From positions 1-51,784 of the forward strand of contig UYFQ01000728.1 in assembly GCA_900617105.1 (NCBI GenBank): a stretch of DNA of 51,784 nucleotides, given 5' to 3'. The notes under the pieces were generated by a model, which saw only the letters and a program-made list of their open reading frames with translations, did no database searches and was not told the DNA's origin. Of this stretch, positions 49,837-50,203 are shown piece by piece; the first letter of the stretch is position 1, and each line of letters begins with the position of its first letter. The stretch comes from Hydrurus foetidus (Eukaryota). The translations under genes and the position numbers were made by a program.

Positions 49837-50203
49837 TGTCGTAATACCAGGCTTTAGTTTCCAATTAATGGACAACTATATCCTTCCTGGTTACGCGCTC
49901 CTTCGGCAACTTCAACACGTGCGCTAGCAACTTGTCTGGGCTCAAAGACGAAGCTCTGCTGGTGTGAGATTTAAGGTAATTAACGATGCAACATCGCTTA
50001 CATCGTTCATGGAGACAGTCGACAAACTCGATCTGTCCCGCACAGTCAAACATGGTGCACTTTCATCTTTTTGATGTTCCTGGGTTAAAGGAACCTGGAC
50101 CGGTGGAGTAGCGACCACCACACAGCACACGACGTACGAAACGTCATCAAATGTACATACGTAATAACTTATACGGTTACTTAGCTCATTAGTTATTCCG
50201 ACA
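49837..50203 (-). repeat. 3' LTR of the second copia (367 bp)
   Basis: Minus strand TGTCGGAATAACT...TATTACGACA aligns along its length with the first element's LTR. The flanking 5-mer CAAAG (+ strand, 49832-49836) is the predicted TSD. Confidence 0.9.

Follow-up and report, generated by a model that had tools for sequence, protein, structure and literature searches.

A likely Tf1-like self-primer in a Ty1/copia lineage and the primer-binding site predicted for its one-base variant

Introduction

Self-priming of reverse transcription has been proven only for fission-yeast gypsy elements of the Tf1 type; in copia elements it is no more than a prediction, made for one plant lineage. In Tf1, according to PMC7175516, the primer is formed by the first 11 nt of the transcript, with RNase H cleaving between bases 11 and 12. 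The accessible part of PMC10085805 adds that Tf1 needs two flanking duplexes, giving a three-duplex "pretzel." The plant prediction concerns TAR copia elements (Houba, Osr-1), for which the sections of PMC6317226 at hand describe at least 10 bases complementary to the long terminal repeat (LTR), 0–5 bp past the 5′ LTR. That hairpin priming is ancestral is a speculation offered in the available text of PMC3601003.

CoDi, diatom, and oomycete elements are not named in five supplements of PMC6317226, and the accessible main text of the CoDi paper (PMC2806351) leaves the primer site undescribed: it contains no "tRNA," and its one "PBS" is a buffer. Our searches of openly accessible literature turned up no account of stramenopile copia elements that prime themselves. 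Here, we analyze two related copia elements in one window, meaning the whole 51,784-nucleotide stretch of DNA under study. A previous sequence-only reading had proposed that an 11-mer in the LTRs might serve as a self-primer and that, if so, the single base by which the second element differs should recur in that element's primer-binding site (PBS).

Results

Element 1 lies on the plus strand and has the hallmarks of Ty1/copia: two direct LTRs bounded by TG...CA, flanked by a target duplication of 5 bp. Its 5′ LTR (37112–37477; 366 bp, TGTCGG...CCGACA) is identical to its 3′ LTR (43123–43488), and the target-site copies CCGTG adjoin the pair on the left (37107–37111) and right (43489–43493). 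The gag gene (37503–38615) encodes 370 aa with a zinc knuckle and has a weak Pfam match (E 0.0008). It is followed by a pol frame open for 1306 codons (38549–42469), which overlaps gag in the -1 frame and matches RVT_2, the Ty1/copia reverse transcriptase (RT), at residues 773–1015 (E 3e-22). Pfam returned no integrase match in this pol; the upstream part is labeled integrase from its position and motif, the D, D, and E columns being invariant over 57 sequences. The polypurine tract position (43106–43122) ends in AGGGGTG. By its identical LTRs and open frames, element 1 is an intact, apparently recently inserted copia.

These elements show several other features. The gag frame ends in ...G GTA AAC TAA within the overlap at 38549–38615, a possible slippery site; the gag terminus KSVN recurs in 11 of 33 gag relatives, and the gag of one relative, L003, ends in A AAA AAC GCA TAA. 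The stretch preceding the 3′ LTR is purine-poor, yet a GGGGTG end is found in elements 1 and 2 and in three relatives (L001, L004, and L005). About 650 non-coding bases separate pol from the 3′ LTR in both elements of the window (42470–43100 and 50260–50850), and this spacer holds three imperfect repeats of 35–48 nt at a spacing of 75–91 nt in each.

Directly after the 5′ LTR of element 1, the PBS position (37478–37488) reads TAATTAACAAT, without TGG. This is the exact complement of 37329–37339 within the LTR, where the predicted self-primer ATTGTTAATTA is preceded by C and would supply RNA bases 1–11 if the RNA starts there; a second copy sits in the 3′ LTR (43340–43350). None of 2000 dinucleotide shuffles of the element 1 LTR reached an 11-nt match to the PBS. 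Because the LTRs are identical and the frames open, this PBS is not a decayed one. No tRNA genes were found in the window.

A pol alignment search yielded 12 related loci (L001–L012), for 13 elements examined including element 1. The counts below cover element 1 and L001–L006, which retain the LTR-PBS junction and enough LTR; left out were L007–L011, which have no 5′ LTR-PBS junction, and L012, which has only about 55 LTR bases. L001 and L002 are each represented by a contig that closes on its own LTR. For L004 and L005, the exact LTR ends carry an uncertainty of 1–2 bases, and the L004 complement was taken from the 3′ copy of the LTR. All seven testable elements carry a complement to the PBS in their own LTR, and the letters differ among sites. 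Counted from the first post-LTR base, the longest perfect complement runs for 11, 11, 9, 9, 13, 13, and 12 nt (element 1, then L001–L006), with L002 and L003 thus reaching 9 nt only. The number of dinucleotide shuffles, of 2000, that attained these lengths was 0, 0, 15, 20, 0, 0, and 2, in the same order. When each PBS was set against the LTRs of the other elements (42 comparisons), the complement never exceeded 7 nt. As a background for the window, a complement of at least 9 nt followed 6 of 1262 plus-strand tetramers resembling LTR ends.

Primer and PBS also differ in step between elements. Compensatory changes affect 2 of 11 PBS positions between element 1 and L001 and 4 of 13 between L004 and L005, each mirrored in the LTR. 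In RT-RNase H, L001 and L002 are 56–57% identical to element 1, and L004 and L005 are 42–43% identical to it; the corresponding tree, rooted at its midpoint, holds 48 of 126 sequences, without L003 and L006. Transcription initiators usually take the form of a C|A step. The complement stops at such a step in five of the six elements counted, with a chance of about 1e-5 (2e-4 without L005) for a pattern that was spotted before the count. It is missing in L003 and in L006, which was found after the 5/6 count, and is present in element 2.

Two of the relatives deserve separate description. L006 (287–536 and 2242–2460) is decayed and internally deleted, with LTRs 87% alike; its PBS complement measures 15 nt in the 3′ LTR copy and 12 nt in the 5′ copy. 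L012, a copia 93% identical to L005, sits on a contig assigned to a bacterial metagenome-assembled genome; most likely, this is a eukaryotic contig that was binned in. No gag relatives were found in metagenome or viral contigs with the gag alignment, pol relatives were not found in viral contigs with two pol alignments, and the LTR pattern was not found in viral contigs.

Element 2 is encoded on the minus strand and is cut off by the window end, with its remainder beyond. The part inside includes the 3′ LTR (49837–50203; 367 bp, TGTCG...CGACA), which is 82.8% identical to the element 1 LTR, a polypurine tract position (50204–50220) with the same 17 bases as element 1, and the end of pol, comprising the RT end and RNase H (50857–51783), which shares 74–83% of its amino acids with element 1 and contains two frame changes. 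The CAAAG that had been named as its target-site copy does adjoin the LTR end, at 49832–49836 on the plus strand. Contigs of runs X1, X6, and X9 (three of the four runs compared) match the flank exactly to 49836 and not past it, and one of them continues for >6 kb unlike the window. Such a stop is consistent with an empty site and defines the LTR boundary of element 2. The insertion thus seems absent from the contigs of these three runs, and the site is likely polymorphic.

The element 2 copy of the predicted self-primer, ATCGTTAATTA, occupies 49977–49987 on the minus strand; on the plus strand these positions read TAATTAACGAT, which occurs nowhere else in the window. The end coordinate of 49991 in the sequence-only reading reflects four flanking bases added to the 11-mer. 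The 11-mer aligns without gaps to ATTGTTAATTA of element 1 (37329–39 and 43340–50) and is identical at 10 of 11 positions, with C at position 3 in place of T, so the one-base difference that had been claimed is real. The LTRs agree in 195 of 220 columns on the U3 side and in 56 of the last 60 bases (93%) upstream of the 11-mer, but in only 36 of 61 columns (59%) over the next 60 bases downstream and in 103 of 141 over the entire downstream part. The stronger divergence reported just downstream of the 11-mer is therefore borne out. We also considered conservation of the 11-mer alone as evidence for priming and rejected it: because the upstream side is conserved equally well, this conservation is uninformative about priming.

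To place the C form in a wider population, we compared contigs from public runs. Two contigs spanning the 11-mer reached depths of 455 (X2) and 449 (X9) against a flank of ~4, where depth is not to be read as copy number. Each carries 10 substitutions relative to element 2, all placeable outside 49977–87, and both therefore carry the C form. A more distant LTR type, probably that of element 1, reached depths of 176 and 194. The C form is thus an abundant, amplified subfamily, present in two public runs from different studies, rather than private decay, and this makes the one-base PBS prediction a meaningful test. Contigs across the element 1 PBS junction all read TAATTAACAAT; they represent the element 1 type and a third type, which shows 22–23 differences over roughly 200 bases and another LTR end, with the PBS unchanged. 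The deepest gag class in the junction contigs aligns from about 37590 onward only.

Duplex energies were calculated for the alternative pairings. The primer of element 1 on its own PBS gives -7.6 kcal/mol with 1 G-C pair. The element 2 primer gives -9.4 kcal/mol on its predicted PBS and -5.5 kcal/mol on an unchanged one, where it would form a C-A mismatch. In the reverse combination, a T-form primer on a G-form PBS (U-G pair), the duplex retains -7.3 kcal/mol, against -7.6 kcal/mol.

In folds of the element 1 leader, the primer-PBS duplex appears in both the lowest-energy and the centroid structure, and the leader taken as a whole is no more stably folded than its shuffles (z -0.46). The leaders of L001 and L005 do fold better than shuffles (z -3.1 and -4.1), with the duplex as their main feature. 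Flanking stems were more variable: a downstream-duplex stem was matched by at most 17 of 300 shuffles in three of seven elements and an LTR-end hairpin by at most 7 of 300, also in three of seven, with element 1 among neither group. A consensus fold of two leader sequences, with double-sided changes in 3 of its 25 pairs, was too thin to count.

The window is eukaryotic DNA, and its remainder contains a neighboring DUF1995 gene. Of the 53 matches to this gene, two named an organism, Ochromonadaceae sp. (51%) and Mallomonas (50%); they make a chrysophyte host likely, as a lead short of a placement. In a separate comparison, itself a weak result, diatoms were the most frequent phylum in the best cluster. 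Inverted repeat arms of 47 nt at 16009–16055 and 16328–16374, 94% complementary and 272 nt apart, may belong to a small DNA transposon. Long simple repeats (units of 5–10 nt and of 4 nt) and a 178-bp tandem pair are found at 26296–26750, 32607–32790, and 2139–2494. Long open frames without a Pfam match span 3–1622 (minus strand, internally repetitive), 3946–6082 (plus), and 11520–13925 (plus).

Discussion

Taken together, the pairing and its covariation suggest that the 11-mer is likely a Tf1-like self-primer in a copia lineage, and that TAATTAACGAT would be the matching PBS of element 2. Under this model, the RNA would start at the A after the C (37329 in element 1), and its first 9–13 bases would fold onto the PBS about 55–210 bases downstream. 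RNase H would then cut after the paired bases, and the freed 3′ end would prime minus-strand DNA. In retroviral biology, plus-strand synthesis copies the primer, so the PBS is rebuilt. Here, the same step would rewrite the PBS from the self-primer, and one or two rounds would suffice to carry a primer change into it. A U-G pair could provide a second route for such a change to reach the PBS. Because plus-strand copying of the primer would make covariation nearly automatic, we consider it probable that the PBS of element 2, outside the window, reads TAATTAACGAT. It had been placed roughly 4 kb past the window, and collinearity with element 1 would indeed put it ~4,050 bases beyond the end. The sequence-only reading is supported in part: covariation in six other elements backs its self-priming premise, and the one-base test is a fair one; the mechanism itself is something we infer.

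Rival readings have to account for the same pairing. One is chance complementarity in AT-rich sequence, with these elements being ordinary tRNA-primed copia whose PBS is degenerate. The sites are indeed AT-rich, with 1–3 G or C each, and two complements extend just 9 nt. However, the dinucleotide shuffles and the comparison of own with other LTRs make a chance match very unlikely, and none of the seven PBS sites starts with TGG, leaving this reading scarcely credible. A more substantial rival accepts the pairing but not its role: the duplex would fold or circularize the RNA to aid strand transfer, packaging, or dimerization, and the primer would be a tRNA half or another small RNA. Covariation shows selection for pairing, not for priming, and the flanking stems are inconsistent among the seven elements. 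There is also precedent, as several copia lineages use half-tRNA primers (PMC6317226) and the fungal copia GalEa has a conserved hairpin replacing the PBS (accessible part of PMC5445492). Against this, the paired stretch starts in all seven elements at the first post-LTR base, where priming must occur, so that another primer would be blocked. Seven differing sites are also incompatible with a shared host tRNA, and the complement ends at the C|A step in five of six elements. We therefore regard a purely structural role as quite unlikely.

Self-priming could also hold while the PBS of element 2 remains TAATTAACAAT, either because a C is tolerated near the 5′ end of the primer or because it arose after insertion. 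In that case, an 8-pair duplex would persist at the extending end (-5.5 kcal/mol), and every PBS-covering contig does read TAATTAACAAT, including the type with 22–23 differences. The two frame changes in pol further indicate that the element 2 copy or its assembly has errors. Yet the C form appears in high-depth contigs from two runs of different studies, and the PBS-covering contigs had LTR ends unlike that of element 2, with the deepest gag class unaligned there. The match is, moreover, unbroken in all seven testable elements. An unchanged PBS is thus an unlikely, though credible, outcome, and self-priming with a co-changed PBS remains our preferred reading.

The persistence of the pairing across 42–57% RT identity points either to repeated origins of independence from host tRNA or to an old one. 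The elements of this lineage would then be immune to control by tRNA fragments, and annotation tools that demand a tRNA match would miss such elements. An intact element 1 together with a sister subfamily differing at one primer base offers a cheap and sharp test. We lean, cautiously, toward the broader view that a copia lineage spanning golden algae and other aquatic protists has evolved tRNA-free self-priming independently of Tf1 and plant TAR elements and without a pretzel, with primer and PBS co-changing each round. Element 1 would in that case offer the first chance to demonstrate this directly in a copia, and the element 2 variant would serve as a natural swap control.

Among known systems, as far as the available descriptions go, the present elements resemble CoDi of diatoms (PMC2806351), which are Ty1/copia elements of a stramenopile that show recent activity and polymorphic insertions. 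They resemble GalEa in having no tRNA-type PBS, but the available part of PMC5445492 has the GalEa site pairing downstream, its authors having found no LTR complement, whereas here the complement lies in the LTR. With respect to plant TAR elements, five of the seven elements satisfy the rule of at least 10 bases, as given in the portion of PMC6317226 at hand, and two reach 9 nt; the present elements differ in that their host is likely a chrysophyte alga and their gag and pol overlap in different frames. The closest parallel in layout is with Tf1/Tf2 of Schizosaccharomyces pombe and the wider Tf1/sushi group, in which, by the accounts available, the PBS likewise stands right after the 5′ LTR and is complementary to an LTR stretch. 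By contrast, Tf1/sushi elements are Ty3/gypsy chromoviruses, whereas RVT_2 and the copia order, with the integrase region before RT, identify the present elements as Ty1/copia and led us to reject Tf1/sushi membership. Unlike in Tf1, so far as that element is described in the accessible sources, pretzel stems were not consistently found here, and the RNA start and the cleavage are predicted ones.
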